Source: a virus
Taxonomy: Duplodnaviria; Heunggongvirae; Uroviricota; Caudoviricetes
IMG/VR virus record: IMGVR_UViG_2671180963_000005
Reading direction: 5' to 3' (one strand)
Length of the DNA stretch: 22,492 bases
The notes beneath the pieces were generated by a model, which did not search any database, was not told the origin of the DNA, and was given only the letters and a program-made list of their open reading frames with translations. A program made the translations under genes and the position numbers. Shown piece after piece: positions 1,423 through 6,592 of this stretch (its first letter is position 1; every line of letters begins with the position of its first letter).

Positions 1423-2579
1423 TTGATTTCAATTTTGTCCCACTCCCTGCCTCTGTCATCACGATACTGTGATGCCATGGTGTCCGACTTATGCCCGAGA
1501 AGATGTTGAGCAAACTTATCGCTTATCTGCTTCTCATAGAGTCTTGCAGACAAACTGCGCAACTCGTGAAAGGTAGGCGGATCCCCTTCGAAGGAAAGAC
1601 CTGATGCTTTTCGTGCGCGCATAAAATACCTTGATACTGTGCCGGATGAAAGCGGTTCGCGACGAGTAGATGCAATTATGGTTTCTCCGCCAAGAATCTC
1701 TTTGCATTTATCAAGTGTTTCCTTCATTGATATTCCGAGAGCATCAACATGCAATGCTGTTGGGATGGCAATTTTTACGCCTGTTTTGCTTTGCTCGACA
1801 TAAAGATATCCATCTACGATATCAGACCACTTCATTTCGCATAAATCACCAACTCGTTGCCCGGTAACAACAGCCAGTTCCATTGCAAGTCTGAGCCAAC
1901 ATGGTGATGATTCTGCTGCTTGATAAATTTTCAGGTATTCGTCAGCCGTAAGTCTTGATCTCCTTACCTCTGATTTTGCTGCGCGAGTGGCAGCGACAGG
2001 GTTTGTTGTTATATGGCCTTCAGCTATTGCCTCTCGGAATGCATCGCTCAGTGTTGATCTGATTAACTTGGCTGACGCCGCCTTGCCCTCGTTTATGTAT
2101 CCATTGAGCATTGCCGCAATTTCTTTTGTGGTGATGTCTTCAAGTGGAGCATCAGGCAGACCCCTCCTTATTGCTTTAATTTTGCTCATGTAATTTATGA
2201 GTGTCTTCTGTTTGATTCCTCTGCTGGCCAGGATTTTTTCGTAGCGATCAAGCCATGAATGTAACGTAACGGAATTATCACTGTTGATTCTCGCTGTCAG
2301 AGGCTTGTGTTTGTGTCCTGAAAATAACTCAATGTTGGCCTGTATAGCTTCAGTGATTGCGATTCGCCTGTCTCTGCCTAATCCAAACTCTTTAATGGCT
2401 TTTTTGCTGGCCCCGTGGCGTTGCAAATGATCGATACATAGCGATTCAAACAGGTGCTGGGGCAGGCCTTTTTCCATGTCGTCTGCCAGTTCTGCCTCTT
2501 TCTCTTCACGGGCGATCTGCTGGTAGTGACGCGCCCAGCTCTGAGCCTCAAGACGATCCTGAATGTAATAAGCGTTCAT
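1419..2579 (-). CDS. int: Tyrosine integrase, lambda Int family; residues from [10 protein letters not shown] onward are lambda Int, the first ~62 residues are unrelated to the lambda arm-binding domain
   Basis: 386-aa ORF; C-terminal ~325 aa match lambda Int as remembered (…[28 protein letters not shown]); stop overlaps the P' arm as in lambda; own SD (caggag) 7 nt upstream of the ATG at 2579. Confidence 0.9.
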
Positions 2580-2654
2580 GGCTGAACTCCTGAAAATGGC
2601 TGTGAAAAAATCGCCCGCGGAATGCCAGGCTGATTCGGAAAACAGGAAAGGGGA

Positions 2655-2945
2655 TTAGTGATTCAGACCGTTGCCGCGTCCGTCGAGAAAAACTTCCACG
2701 AGCAAGTCACGGGTATAAGTGCGCTCAATGCCGCGATGCAGATAAAGTCGTCCGTGTAAATTAGCTGATGCAGTCCAGGTACCATCTTTGCGTTTGACCA
2801 GCATTCCTGGCATGACCGCACCGCGATTAACGGTCTGCGTTCCGTAATGTTGATGAACCATAAAAACTCCTGCCCGTAAGCTGGGCTGCTGAACATATAA
2901 AGACTTCTGCGCGTATTCAGGCGGTGGATGGCCGCCGGTTGTCAT
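2655..2945 (-). CDS. Hypothetical protein in the xis position directly upstream of int; no confident homology
   Basis: 96-aa ORF ending 75 bp upstream of int on the same strand; not lambda Xis; function not recognised. Confidence 0.3.
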   Translation of the reverse strand: MTTGGHPPPEYAQKSLYVQQPSLRAGVFMVHQHYGTQTVNRGAVMPGMLVKRKDGTWTASANLHGRLYLHRGIERTYTRDLLVEVFLDGRGNGLNH

Positions 2946-3140
2946 AACTAAGCCGCCTCGTTGAAGCGACTAAGGTATGAAATGTTGAGTTGATTTCAGC
3001 TGGTCACACCGACGTTCACGCGTCCGTTTCATCCCTCGCACTCCCCGAAGCCTGCTGAAATTCAAGCTGCGGATCTAAGCGGTCATCGCAACGGTGAATC
3101 AGGTGGTTGCCGTATCGTTGTGTTGTTGCGATATGGTGAT

Positions 3141-3181
3141 AATAGCTATTGCTATTGGTGATATCAATGCTTATTGCTATT
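3141..3181. promoter_or_regulatory. OL-like operator region: two TTGCTATT motifs 25 bp apart (3149-3156, 3174-3181) plus inverted repeat ATAGC-N4-GCTAT (3142-3155)
   Basis: The same motif pair with identical 25-bp spacing recurs in the cI/cro intergenic region (5729-5736, 5754-5761). Confidence 0.45.
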
Positions 3182-3308
3182 AGTTGATGTGTTTTGATAT
3201 TAAATGTTTGATAGCAAAAAGAATTAATTTTGTGACTTGCATCGCATAGCGATAACTGAAGTGAGGTCGTGGTGGTTTTTTGAACGGTTTGTGTGATGGG
3301 GGGAGGGC

Positions 3309-3335
3309 AAAAGAAAACCCGGCACGGTAGCCGGG
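3309..3335 (-). terminator. Rho-independent terminator at the end of the cI-TAC leftward operon
   Basis: On the minus strand: stem CCCGGC, loop taccgt, stem GCCGGG, followed by TTTTCTTTT, immediately after the stop of the SecB-like ORF. Confidence 0.7.
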
Positions 3336-3349
3336 AGTTATATTTGAAT

Positions 3350-3853
3350 TTAATCTAATGAAGGTATGTCTGATTTATTGAATTTAAAGAATGGTATAGC
3401 TATTGTAGTAATTCCCATTCTGGATGTGCTGTTTTGAACATACTCTCGCCAAAAAGGCCATACATTAAAACCTACATTTTGCTTAGCAAATTCTTCTAAC
3501 TCTTCTTTAGATAATTCTCTCTTTGAGCGATATATCGCCTCAAAAATTGCTTCTATAGAAAAAATTGTATCAACATCATTTTCGTCTTTAGATGTTTCTT
3601 CGGATTTTGCAATAAATCTAAGCCCAACTGAGTAGTGAAAAGAGTAATATAGCTCATTTTTTAATGAGTCATCGTCACTTACTAATTCAATAGCTTCGAT
3701 TTTTTTTATCTTACGAAATGATTGTGTTTGCTTATTTATGCTGTTGAAGTTAAAGCTATTATACCCTTCAGAAAAAGCAAAGTTAGATTCTCTGATATTG
3801 ATATGCATTATTGATAATGCGTCTATTGCTGATCTAAGAAGTTCATTCATCAT
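3350..3853 (-). CDS. SecB-like chaperone, third component of a toxin-antitoxin-chaperone (TAC) module
   Basis: 167-aa ORF; start ATG overlaps the antitoxin stop (ATGA coupling); by-eye similarity to E. coli SecB (IMHINIRESNFAF vs IQRIYTKDISFE; IFSIEAIFE vs IFSIAGIEG; VWPFWREYVQNSTSRMGITTIAIPFFKF vs [28 protein letters not shown]); AT-rich. Confidence 0.65.
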   Translation of the reverse strand: MMNELLRSAIDALSIMHINIRESNFAFSEGYNSFNFNSINKQTQSFRKIKKIEAIELVSDDDSLKNELYYSFHYSVGLRFIAKSEETSKDENDVDTIFSIEAIFEAIYRSKRELSKEELEEFAKQNVGFNVWPFWREYVQNSTSRMGITTIAIPFFKFNKSDIPSLD

Positions 3854-4458
3854 GCTACCCGCTTAGCAACAGTTTTTATCTTTATTGATGTTTGATTCAT
3901 TTTTGTTTGGGCTGGTGATTTGCTGTCAAATCCCTGATCATCGTTTTCAAATTGTGCTTTTGCTTCAGATTTCCATATAGGTAAAGATTTAGATGATGAG
4001 ACTGTTCTTTCAACTTTGATTTCGCCAGATAATTCCCGTAACCTTTTGAATGCATCAGGAACTTCTGCTGCTAAACGCATCAGTTTATCCATTGCTTCTG
4101 ATTGAATGACATCATCAGATTCATACTTGGAAAATGCCTTAGGCCCCCCACCAAATATAGAGGATGCCTTTTGCTGGGTTATCATCCATACTTCAGTTCT
4201 AATTTTTTTTAATTCTTTTCCTGTTAAAAGTCCATCGATAGACTTTTTGTATTCATTGAAAATTCGTTTGTTTTCTCGTAAATCGACTGGTGTGGCAGTT
4301 TCCGAACCACATTGATCACACACAGAAAACCTTATTGGGAGATTTTTTGTTTCCCCTTTATAAGTAACATCATCATACTCCATCTCCACGGTGAGATGAC
4401 CTACACCACAAACTGGACATATGTTGTTGTTTCTCATATAAAAATCCTCATTTATCAT
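3850..4458 (-). CDS. MqsA-like antitoxin (zinc-ribbon N-domain plus HTH-XRE domain) with ~65-aa C-terminal extension (putative chaperone-addiction tail)
   Basis: CPVCG…CDQCG zinc-binding motifs and HTH region ITQQKASSIFGGGPKAFSKYE matching MqsA LTQKEASEIFGGGVNAFSRYE; protein ~70 aa longer than the 131-aa MqsA; start taken as the ATG at 4456-4458 (a GTG at 4459-4461 is an alternative); abuts the toxin stop. Confidence 0.75.
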   Translation of the reverse strand: MINEDFYMRNNNICPVCGVGHLTVEMEYDDVTYKGETKNLPIRFSVCDQCGSETATPVDLRENKRIFNEYKKSIDGLLTGKELKKIRTEVWMITQQKASSIFGGGPKAFSKYESDDVIQSEAMDKLMRLAAEVPDAFKRLRELSGEIKVERTVSSSKSLPIWKSEAKAQFENDDQGFDSKSPAQTKMNQTSIKIKTVAKRVA

Positions 4459-4461
4459 CAC

Positions 4462-4872
4462 TCAATTAGAGAGATGAAGAGATACTGTAAGCACTACATT
4501 GCCAGTAATGTTTACAAAAAATTTAATGTAGAACTCGTTATTAAGTTCTTTATGCATAGCTTGGCACCAAAATGAGTGCTCAAAGCTATAAGCATCACAA
4601 GCTGCCCATACACCTGGTTTACTGCCTTGACACCATTCTGAACCTAGAAATCTCCCTTTAGTGACTGCTTTTATCACCATAGATTTGATGTCATCTGCAT
4701 CTAAAGAAAGCGATTGAACATCCCTGATACACCGTCTAGTCCAAGGCAGTGTGTCACATTCATCAATCAAATCAATGATATCTAAATAAAGCGGACCACC
4801 TTGAATCTTTCTGTCCTCGCCATCACGGGGAGGAGTTCCCACATATCTGCTAAGAATCATACTTGTTACCAT
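4462..4872 (-). CDS. MqsR-like (RelE-fold) toxin, first gene of the TAC module
   Basis: 136-aa ORF immediately upstream of the MqsA-like gene in toxin-first order as in mqsRA; C-terminal YIKFFVNITGNVVLTVSLH resembles MqsR YLKITVIHDVLIVSFKE; alternative start at ATG 4860. Confidence 0.6.
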   Translation of the reverse strand: MVTSMILSRYVGTPPRDGEDRKIQGGPLYLDIIDLIDECDTLPWTRRCIRDVQSLSLDADDIKSMVIKAVTKGRFLGSEWCQGSKPGVWAACDAYSFEHSFWCQAMHKELNNEFYIKFFVNITGNVVLTVSLHLSN

Positions 4873-4991
4873 TATGGTAAGTCTAGTCTAAAAGCACGTG
4901 CATATTGTTTTTTTGTGCTGTATGTAAGTTACTCGTCGATCTGCAACTGTGAGTCTGGATAGCTTACAAAATAGAGTTGACACGTCCTTCA

Positions 4992-5684
4992 CTACCCATG
5001 CTTCCTATACGTCTGCGGCATGCTTCCGATGACTTTCCCGAAGATGAATACCCGGTTCATCTCGTCTTTCTCGATCGGGTCCCACGGTGAGTAGCTCTTG
5101 TTATCAGAGATAACTAGCAGCTTATCCTTCATCATTTGCAGGCGCTTTACATGGGCTGTGTCGTCATACAGAAACGCATAGATACCATCACCGTCGAAAG
5201 ATTTAACCGTGATATCAACGAACAGAAGATCACCTGGTTCGATCGTTCCTGACATGCTGTCACCGCGTACGTTAATGATGCGGATATTTTCTGCCTTCCT
5301 ACCATCGAACATGTGACGAGCATCGTCAAACGAGTACTCAACCGAGCGTAGAACTTCTACAAACTCACGGTTGATGACTCCCGGCCCGGCACTGACTTCT
5401 ATATCAAGAACGTCAATTTTGAAGTATTTTGAATGGCTGACAGCAGGCTTCCCTGATTGTTGACCGTCATTTCTCATCGGGCCTATGCCTGATGAGAGCC
5501 ATTCTGTTCGAACACCCAATGCATTAGCTATTTCAACAATTTTTGTTGAGCCGCGAGCGTTGCCGCTTGTCAGTCTCCAGATTGTGGGTTGAGCTACGCC
5601 AGACGCCTTTGCAAGAGCGCCTTGAGACATTCCAGATTGTTCCATCGCTAGGTTTAAGCGATCAGCAAGAGTTTCTTTTTTCAT
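4992..5684 (-). CDS. CI-like prophage repressor (HTH-XRE N-domain plus LexA/S24 peptidase C-domain)
   Basis: HTH MSQGALAKASGVAQPTIWRL; S24 motifs GDSM and K-R; divergent to a Cro-like gene; first ATG at 5684 (ORF track extends to a TTG at 5720); likely a leaderless or short-leader mRNA as for lambda cI. Confidence 0.8.
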   Translation of the reverse strand: MKKETLADRLNLAMEQSGMSQGALAKASGVAQPTIWRLTSGNARGSTKIVEIANALGVRTEWLSSGIGPMRNDGQQSGKPAVSHSKYFKIDVLDIEVSAGPGVINREFVEVLRSVEYSFDDARHMFDGRKAENIRIINVRGDSMSGTIEPGDLLFVDITVKSFDGDGIYAFLYDDTAHVKRLQMMKDKLLVISDNKSYSPWDPIEKDEMNRVFIFGKVIGSMPQTYRKHG

Positions 5685-5794
5685 AAGTTTTAATTTATAC
5701 GCTTGCGTATTGATGGTCAAAACACGTTTTGCTATTGCTTGGATTAATACGCATTGCTATTATTCATTCATTGCAATACCAATAGGAATTGATA
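5685..5794. promoter_or_regulatory. Divergent cI/cro promoter-operator region (OR-like): inverted repeat ATACGC-tt-GCGTAT at 5697-5710; TTGCTATT motifs at 5729-5736 and 5754-5761
   Basis: Perfect 6-bp inverted repeat with 2-bp spacer; repeated motifs shared with the 3141-3181 region; lies between divergently transcribed repressor and Cro-like genes. Confidence 0.6.
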
Positions 5795-6022
5795 ATGACA
5801 AATCAAACCATTCAACTCGCAATCAGTATTACAGGTAGTCAAAAACGACTGGCAGATCTATGCGGTGTAGCCCAACCCACAGTTTGGCGTTGGCTACACG
5901 GTGGCGGAATTGATGCCCGCTATGTAATGAAAATTGTCTCAGCCACTGGTGGAAAGATTAAACCAGCAGATATTCGTCCCGACCTCGCACCATTGTTTAA
6001 CGCGAGTAATTCTGCCGCCTAA
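5795..6022 (+). CDS. Cro/YdaS-like HTH regulator
   Basis: 75-aa ORF with HTH (QKRLADLCGVAQPTVWRW); SD AGGAA 6 nt upstream of the ATG at 5795; divergent from the repressor. Confidence 0.7.
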   Translation: MTNQTIQLAISITGSQKRLADLCGVAQPTVWRWLHGGGIDARYVMKIVSATGGKIKPADIRPDLAPLFNASNSAA

Positions 6023-6046
6023 ACTGCGGCGTTAACTGATAAGGCA

Positions 6047-6592
6047 ATGACTATGCAACCACTTACATACCAACAGACTAGCGGATTTAGCCCGACTGCG
6101 GTGATAAATCGTTCTCAAACAAAACAGGCGCCAGGCCACGAAAAAATCCGTGATGCCGTTCGCGCCTGGTCGGCTGCAGATAATCAGGATGTTGTTGCCG
6201 CACTCATTGTGAATGAGTATCGGGAGCAGGGCGGCGGCACCATCGATTTCCCTGATGATGTCAGCCGTGCACGCCAGAAGCTGTTCCGCTTCCTCGATAA
6301 CAAATTCGATTCTGAAAAATACCGAAATAACGTGCGTGAACTGACCCCGGCAATTCTGGCGGTACTACCGCTGGAATATCGCGGCCACCTGGTTGAGCAG
6401 GATAGCTACATGGCTCGGCTGGCTGAAATGGAAAAGGAACTCAGTGAGGCAAAACAGGCTGTCATTCTCAACGCACCACGCCACCAGAAACTGAAGGAGA
6501 TGAGTGAAGGCATTGTGTCGATGTTTCGTGTGGACCCGGATTTGGCTGGTCCACTGATGGCGATGGTCACCACCATGCTGGGGGCAATATGA
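6047..6592 (+). CDS. YdaT-like protein (CII-position regulator of Rac-type immunity regions)
   Basis: Central region IVNEYREQGGG…ELTPAILAVLPLEYRGHLVEQDS resembles Rac YdaT as remembered; located in the cII position between cro-like and O. Confidence 0.55.
   Translation: MTMQPLTYQQTSGFSPTAVINRSQTKQAPGHEKIRDAVRAWSAADNQDVVAALIVNEYREQGGGTIDFPDDVSRARQKLFRFLDNKFDSEKYRNNVRELTPAILAVLPLEYRGHLVEQDSYMARLAEMEKELSEAKQAVILNAPRHQKLKEMSEGIVSMFRVDPDLAGPLMAMVTTMLGAI

Follow-up and report, generated by a model that had tools for sequence, protein, structure and literature searches.

A toxin-antitoxin-chaperone cassette matching the anti-phage MqsRAC system in the rexAB-equivalent slot of a cryptic lambdoid prophage

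The IMG/VR virus record IMGVR_UViG_2671180963_000005 (Caudoviricetes; 22,492 nt, a stretch which we will call the window) contains, between positions 3350 and 4872 of its minus strand, three tightly packed genes that form a toxin-antitoxin-chaperone (TAC) module. We conclude, with a probability of about 0.9, that these genes are the MqsR/MqsA/MqsC anti-phage TAC published from E. coli C496_10, carried here as cargo in the rexAB-equivalent slot of a cryptic DLP12-like lambdoid prophage. The module is already known and the core of this finding is a rediscovery. What we add to the published work is modest: the precise native context, in which the cassette exactly fills the slot from the cI stop codon to the terminator of the immunity operon, evidence for a toxin start four codons before that of the published constructs, and a conserved operator-like palindrome over the start codon.

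Identity with the published MqsRAC system and the three proteins

The window module can be equated with the published system since both a gene fragment and the cloning primers match it exactly and the module's copies in E. coli share 99.6-100% identity with each other. The synthetic 'MsqRAC gene fragment' (Vassallo et al., 2022, Table S8) can be read over 379 bases, every one of which matches positions 4960-4582 on the minus strand with no mismatches. The gene-specific parts of the primers, five out of five, are also exact and sit at the ends of the open reading frames (ORFs): mqsR-F at 4860-4840, mqsR-R at 4462-4485, mqsRA-R (pBAD-mqsRA-R) at 3850-3867, mqsC-F at 3853-3831 and mqsC-R at 3350-3372. 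The genes, their order and the native upstream region from 4960 are the same as in C496_10 MqsRAC, with no detectable difference. An earlier note on this DNA, made from the sequence alone, had mentioned that an MqsRA-type TAC was reported as anti-phage, and the reported system proves to be the same sequence over all comparable positions (the 379 nt and the primers). The note's reading of the module is supported throughout, and two details alone call for correction, namely where the antitoxin starts and how far the toxin is extended at its N-terminus. A literature search with the RefSeq protein accessions gave nothing relevant.

The activity of the system is documented in the published work. 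According to the available text of the original study (Vassallo et al., 2022, Nat Microbiol, PMC9519451), the toxicity of MqsR is rescued only by MqsA and MqsC together, the operon with its native promoter in a promoterless vector provides robust protection against T2 and none against T4, and an excess of MqsC abolishes the protection against T2. The accessible part of a later study (Fernandez-Garcia et al., 2023, PMC10783111) confirms the inhibition of T2, in which McrBC is said to cooperate. In the direct experiments available from these two papers, T2 protection from the native promoter amounts to 10^3-10^5-fold.

The layout of the cassette is that of a TAC operon, with toxin, antitoxin and chaperone genes following each other in this order and all co-oriented on the minus strand; the ORF list agrees with the earlier note on the three reading frames at 4462-4872, 3850-4461 and 3350-3853. 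The long-form MqsR-fold toxin is encoded by mqsR (4462-4872), the MqsA-family antitoxin by mqsA (3850-4437) and the 167-aa SecB-like TAC chaperone by mqsC (3350-3853). The overlap of the mqsA stop with the mqsC start is seen, as described before, in the ATGA at 3853-3850. The toxin stop was also said to abut the antitoxin start, and this holds only for the maximal ORF (3850-4461), which begins at GTG 4461 and encodes 203 aa. Antitoxin translation probably starts at ATG 4437, which gives 195 aa and leaves a 24-nt spacer after the toxin stop; this ATG has a GAGGA Shine-Dalgarno sequence at 4449-4445 with a spacing of 7 nt and is the start picked by PGAP.

The antitoxin clearly belongs to the MqsA family. 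It scores 113.2 bits against the MqsA family model TIGR03830 (cut-off 61.8, E 6.9e-33), matches Pfam MqsA_antitoxin with E 2.1e-17, and its residues 6-133 of 195 align to residues 4-132 of full-length E. coli MqsA (PDB 3gn5_A, E 4.6e-7). The CPVC and CDQC zinc-ribbon motifs are both present in the translation. Past the MqsA match there remains a C-terminal extension of 62 aa (residues 134-195, encoded by 3853-4038 on the minus strand), so that the antitoxin with zinc-ribbon and HTH motifs and an extra tail of about 65 aa proposed in the earlier note is borne out. The tails of homologues vary, yet a Trp (LPIW) is conserved in them and so is a short hydrophobic patch (IKIKTV or LRVVSS). This pattern is consistent with the aromatic patterns in the chaperone-addiction element (ChAD) of HigBAC, which makes the tail a candidate ChAD as judged from its residues. 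In one assembly (GCA_974490485.1, L096:3418-4004) the mqsA call is broken into two ORFs of 84 and 111 aa, with mqsR and mqsC apparently intact; the cause is a frameshift from sequencing or else decay of the antitoxin, which would then need a compensating change.

The toxin has the MqsR/RelE-like alpha-beta RNase fold. Its sequence has no match to Pfam PF15723 (MqsR_toxin); 6 of 40 toxin homologues match this model at E 0.01 or better, the best reaching 25.4 bits where the cut-off is 26.2. In the PDB neither sequence nor profile searches returned anything for the toxin, the profile search against the PDB MqsR included, and when the toxin family profile was aligned by hhalign to a single MqsR sequence, only part of it was covered, at E 0.059. 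In a crude pairwise alignment, inspected by eye and reliable for the C-terminal strands only, Y81, K83 and S94 of MqsR pair with Y115, K117 and S131, of which K117 and S131 are invariant in the family. The toxin was described previously as longer than MqsR by about 40 aa at the N-terminus; the overall excess is indeed 38 aa, of which only about 22-25 aa are N-terminal, the rest coming from longer beta-strands. The true start of the toxin is supported by its sequence family to be ATG 4872 (136 aa), as chosen in the earlier note, because both the Met-Val conservation (M1 and V2 are nearly invariant in the 40 homologues) and the palindrome discussed below point there. ATG 4860, four codons downstream (132 aa), is used by PGAP in the RefSeq record examined and in the published constructs, and in other assemblies some gene calls take one of these starts and some the other.

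MqsC has the SecB-TA fold, as anticipated from its SecB-like motifs. At the sequence level its similarity to SecB is weak and sub-threshold (16.5 bits against a Pfam threshold of 26, and 15.3 against 143 in NCBIfam), and there is a weak PADLOC match to CmdC. Among 72 homologous long-form mqsR loci from Gamma- and Betaproteobacteria, with protein identities of 33-47%, the order toxin-antitoxin-chaperone with a recognisable chaperone is found in 35. About half of the long-form mqsR-mqsA loci, mostly from Betaproteobacteria, keep the long antitoxin tail and have an overlapping third ORF of about 140 aa instead (loci L042, L045, L047-L050, L052, L054-L056, L058-L070, L072 and L074; for example L050:7012-7434). 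Pfam, local hhalign and a PDB profile search link none of these shorter ORFs to SecB, hhalign against the MqsC alignment gives E 0.21, and only a short FRRE..Q..MG motif resembles the C-terminus of SecB-TA.

The cI-downstream slot and its prophage

Phage lambda carries rexAB between cI and a terminator upstream of OL/PL. The module occupies the same position in the window, inside the immunity region between cI and OL/PL, as is evident from the repressor, the terminator, the promoter and the paired repeats that surround it. Directly upstream of the cassette lies a cI-like repressor gene (4992-5684/5720, minus strand), the product of which has helix-turn-helix (HTH) and S24 peptidase domains (Pfam HTH_3 E 1.5e-6, Peptidase_S24 E 1.5e-18); in phage PhiR70_1 this gene carries the annotation cI. 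Divergent from it is a cro-like gene at 5789. Directly after mqsC the terminator scan places an intrinsic terminator, which closes the immunity operon (3335-3318, minus strand; CCCGGCTACCGTGCCGGG then TTTTCTTTT). Further on is the OL/PL-like region (3139-3181, minus strand), with a strong sigma-70-like leftward promoter, TTGATA-17-TATTAT, at 3167-3139 and two TTGCTATT repeats. There are four copies of the 8-mer TTGCTATT in the window, arranged as two same-strand pairs, each with its members exactly 25 bp apart, at 3149/3174 (PL-like) and at 5729/5754 (between cI and cro). Their number is only mildly unusual (1.39 expected, and four copies reached in 5 of 100 shuffles), and we identify OL and OR not because of the count but because the pairs sit at both of the expected operator sites. 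The terminator, the promoter and the repeat pairs all agree with the earlier proposal of a rexAB position between the repressor and a terminator before OL.

The limits of the cargo are defined sharply by related phages that lack the TAC. PhiR68_2 and Lambda_4C10 share 95-99% identity with the window as far as 3335/3336, at the terminator hairpin's upstream edge, and match it again from 4991/4996, at the cI stop codon, with other genes in between. Since homology breaks at these points, the cargo spans 3337-4990 (1.65 kb), including a cassette-borne region between the cI stop and mqsR (4873-4990), and since homology reaches 3335/3336 the terminator belongs to the conserved phage backbone and not to the cassette. 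The G+C content within these limits is 35.5%, against 46-47.5% in the flanks, and the contrast between an AT-rich block and a GC-richer backbone was noticed correctly before. In Lambda_4C10 the slot (L087:4338-5754) holds the PADLOC candidate system PDC-M11 A+B (E 3e-133 and 7e-52), and in PhiR68_2 (L086:4335-5790) it holds two co-oriented genes for proteins of 341 and 149 aa, neither of which matches anything in Pfam or PADLOC; they may be an uncharacterised defence pair.

In 10 loci from phages or prophages the TAC itself follows directly on a repressor gene, and four different repressors are involved. Diverged copies, with 70-75% identity, lie behind three repressors other than the one in the window: a 127-aa HTH protein, a 229-aa S24 protein and a 240-aa C2 protein (the last in Klebsiella phage 2b). 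This distribution implies that the cassette moves between immunity regions, always landing in the slot downstream of the repressor gene. The different defence-type cargo in the sister phages supports the rexAB position as a place where defence genes are exchanged within this lineage of phages.

Of 5426 complete E. coli genomes 18 have the cassette, and the exact MqsC protein is indexed in 2414 assembly-collection blocks, with the cI-TAC-kil arrangement present in 10 of 10 contexts among those listed. The plaque-forming phage PhiR70_1 carries the cassette at 99.9% identity; a literature search for a paper describing the PhiR phages gave only their use in a panel.

At att-lambda, flanked by ybhC on one side and ybhB/bioA on the other, lies a DLP12-like cryptic prophage, the whole of which is within the window. 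It comprises a gam'-'int fusion, kil, the TAC, cI, cro, a YdaT-like gene, O, P, ren, emrE, ybcK to ybcO, rusA, quuD, an ompC-like porin gene, IS1, an AraC regulator and transposase debris. It has no lysis or structural genes, and xis, exo and bet are deleted, which explains the fusion, a 386-aa ORF at 1419-2579 in which the N-terminus of Gam is joined to an integrase lacking its own N-terminus. In other assemblies the same cassette is accompanied by an intact gam-bet-exo-xis region. No N-like ORF of at least 40 aa is present between the PL-like promoter and kil (2946-3139, minus strand); kil has a leader of about 190 nt there, in which no known RNA is recognised by Rfam. Over 2500-6100, too, permissive scanning with Rfam produced nothing credible; a match to isrJ (E 0.65) lies over the terminator and was discarded.

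A palindrome over the toxin start codon

The mqsR start codon (ATG 4872-4870) is embedded in a perfect palindrome, TTACCATAATGGTAA (4880-4866, minus strand; TTACCAT-N-ATGGTAA), which extends to 19 bp as AnTTACCAT-n-ATGGTAAnT at 4864-4882. The general repeat scan does not output this short element, and it was confirmed by a pattern search, in which it is the sole match to TTACC-N5-GGTAA in the window, with 0.03 expected. In 67 unique ATG-anchored loci its positions carry 1.7-2.0 bits of information at -10, -8 to -3 and 0 to +6, including the third position of the Val codon, while further upstream the information falls to about 0-0.3 bits. The palindrome is therefore near-invariant although the flanks have diverged and the proteins are only 33-47% identical. 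Conservation of the third position of the Val codon indicates selection on the nucleotides, and this explains the Met-Val-(Asn/Thr/Ser) at the N-terminus of the toxin.

What could the palindrome be for? Published MqsA operators are AACCT-N3-AGGTT in E. coli and TTAACCT GGA AGGTTAA, overlapping the mqsR ribosome-binding site, in P. putida (PMC4894380, PMC5422877), and the ACC-N5-GGT spacing of the palindrome is equal to theirs, so it is a candidate MqsA operator. The left half-site occupies the position upstream of the mqsR ATG where a Shine-Dalgarno sequence would have to be, hence none is possible there, and the result is a distinct asymmetry between mqsR, which has no Shine-Dalgarno sequence, and mqsA, which has a strong one. 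We infer from these features that MqsA may repress at the toxin start codon and that toxin translation may be intrinsically weak or leaderless. Going further, we tentatively suggest, as a possibility to which we give rather less than even odds, that the 19-bp palindrome is a hallmark, hitherto undescribed, of the clade of long-form MqsR toxins, many of them chaperone-linked, and a putative MqsA operator lying over the toxin initiation codon. We found no mention of such a start-codon palindrome in the searchable literature, and the available text of the MqsRAC papers describes neither it nor the rexAB-slot prophage context and takes the 132-aa toxin start. If the palindrome were indeed an MqsA operator, toxin synthesis would rely on a leaderless or Shine-Dalgarno-less mRNA, bound MqsA would form a roadblock insulating the cassette from cI read-through, and it would become clear how a toxin-first operon can stay safe behind any repressor gene. 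The palindrome offers a testable model of toxin control.

As to transcription, the published functional fragment, which according to the available text was placed in a promoterless vector, starts at 4960, and so the cassette works from its own upstream 88 bp; the region 4873-4990 carries the native promoter. A sigma-70 site at 4885-4856 was rejected as the cassette promoter, as transcription from it would begin downstream of the start codon. In enteric cassettes with different repressors ahead of them, a block upstream of mqsR, CAGCACAAAAAAACAA, is conserved. The terminator scan predicts no terminator between 4992 and 4872, which makes co-transcription of mqsR with cI plausible on the basis of the sequence.

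Proposed mechanism, alternatives and known systems

We propose the following mechanism. In the lysogen the operon's own promoter would drive its transcription, perhaps supplemented by read-through from cI, while MqsA would repress it at the palindrome that holds the mqsR start codon. The lack of a Shine-Dalgarno sequence in front of mqsR, together with the strong one in front of mqsA, would keep the antitoxin in excess, and MqsC would hold the tail of MqsA, which is expected to be prone to aggregation and proteolysis. Upon T2 infection a phage protein would titrate MqsC away. Judging from HigBAC and CmdTAC, where a phage structural protein competes with the ChAD for binding to the SecB-like chaperone (Mets et al., 2024), this protein would probably be structural. 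MqsA would then be degraded and free MqsR would cleave mRNA, halting the infected cell.

Several observations weigh against the identification of the cassette as MqsRAC acting in this way. Sameness with C496_10 has been established over 379 nt and the primer sites rather than over the whole 1.65 kb, and the sigma-70 scan reveals no credible promoter of the cassette. In the by-eye pairwise alignment, which is crude, the active-site Lys96 of MqsR seems to be replaced by the invariant H133. As for the outcome of infection, the accessible part of PMC10783111 argues that the survivors are persisters and that infection leads to persistence together with restriction, not to abortive death.

A different view of the module would be that it serves mainly for addiction and stabilisation of the prophage, so that loss of the prophage frees MqsR and kills or arrests the cured cell, with defence being a side effect that shows only with the cloned operon. 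It is established that classical type II toxin-antitoxin systems stabilise mobile elements, and the prophage in the window, decayed as it is (the int'-'gam fusion, no xis, exo or bet, no lysis or structural genes), still keeps cI and the TAC intact. However, the same cassette resides in the inducible, plaque-forming PhiR70_1, the slot holds other defence-type cargo in the sister phages, and the T2 protection available from the published direct experiments was obtained from the native promoter. We consider addiction as the main role to be unlikely, bearing in mind that the addiction and defence roles are not mutually exclusive. Far less probable still is a two-component MqsRA with an unrelated or dispensable third gene, with a SecB resemblance that is incidental and an antitoxin tail that plays no part in chaperone addiction. 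The SecB scores of MqsC below the curated thresholds would fit such a view, as would the third ORFs that, in roughly every second long-form mqsR locus elsewhere, are not detectably SecB-like; set beside the SecB-TA fold of MqsC and the published rescue of MqsR toxicity by MqsA only in company with MqsC, it has very little to recommend it.

The palindrome, on the other hand, might act in RNA rather than as a DNA operator, with a small hairpin masking the AUG and throttling the translation of the toxin. The element does include the start codon, leaves no room for a Shine-Dalgarno sequence upstream and is invariant in 67 loci. Nevertheless, the 7-bp stem would have to close on a 1-nt loop, which is sterically impossible, and the alternative 5-bp stem, mostly A-U with a 5-nt loop, is weak. 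There is also no supporting covariation, as the positions are invariant and the outer ones do not co-vary, and the ACC-N5-GGT spacing is that of experimentally defined MqsA operators. An RNA element in place of an operator is therefore doubtful, somewhat less so than addiction as the main role of the module, and operator and RNA roles could coexist in the same sequence.

Compared with known systems, the cassette differs from E. coli K-12 MqsR/MqsA, a type II system (PDB 3hi2, 3gn5) with no chaperone and no antitoxin tail, in that its toxin is the longer form, below the Pfam MqsR threshold, and in that the half-site is TTACCA rather than TAACCT, with a candidate operator that includes the start codon, in contrast to the K-12 operator, which lies in the upstream promoter. 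In Mycobacterium tuberculosis HigBA1-SecB(TA) (Rv1955-Rv1957) the toxin and antitoxin are of the HigBA family and not MqsRA, and the chaperones share 16% identity. The same composition is found in Vcho-TAC of Vibrio cholerae RC385, which has an MqsR-like toxin, an MqsA with a ChAD (residues 136-176) and a SecB-like chaperone, the dependence on which is experimental (Bordes et al., 2016, PMC5105189); its toxin also appears to be longer than the 98-aa MqsR, as deduced from the 981-nt toxin-antitoxin region and the 176-aa antitoxin, while the host and the genomic context are different from those in the window.

In position and logic the counterpart of the module is lambda RexAB, likewise a lysogen-expressed, abortive-type defence between cI and the terminator upstream of OL/PL. 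There is no homology between the two: RexAB is a membrane-depolarising pair, whereas in the window an RNase toxin would be freed by the loss of its antitoxin, and Pfam, NCBIfam and PADLOC give no Rex family match for any of the three proteins, so that only the genomic position is common. In the way of sensing infection the closest parallels are probably E. coli HigBAC and CmdTAC (PD-T4-9), which are likewise prophage-borne TAC defences and in which the chaperone is the phage sensor (Mets et al., 2024), although their toxin-antitoxin warheads are different and their triggers are known, that of HigBAC being lambda gpV.

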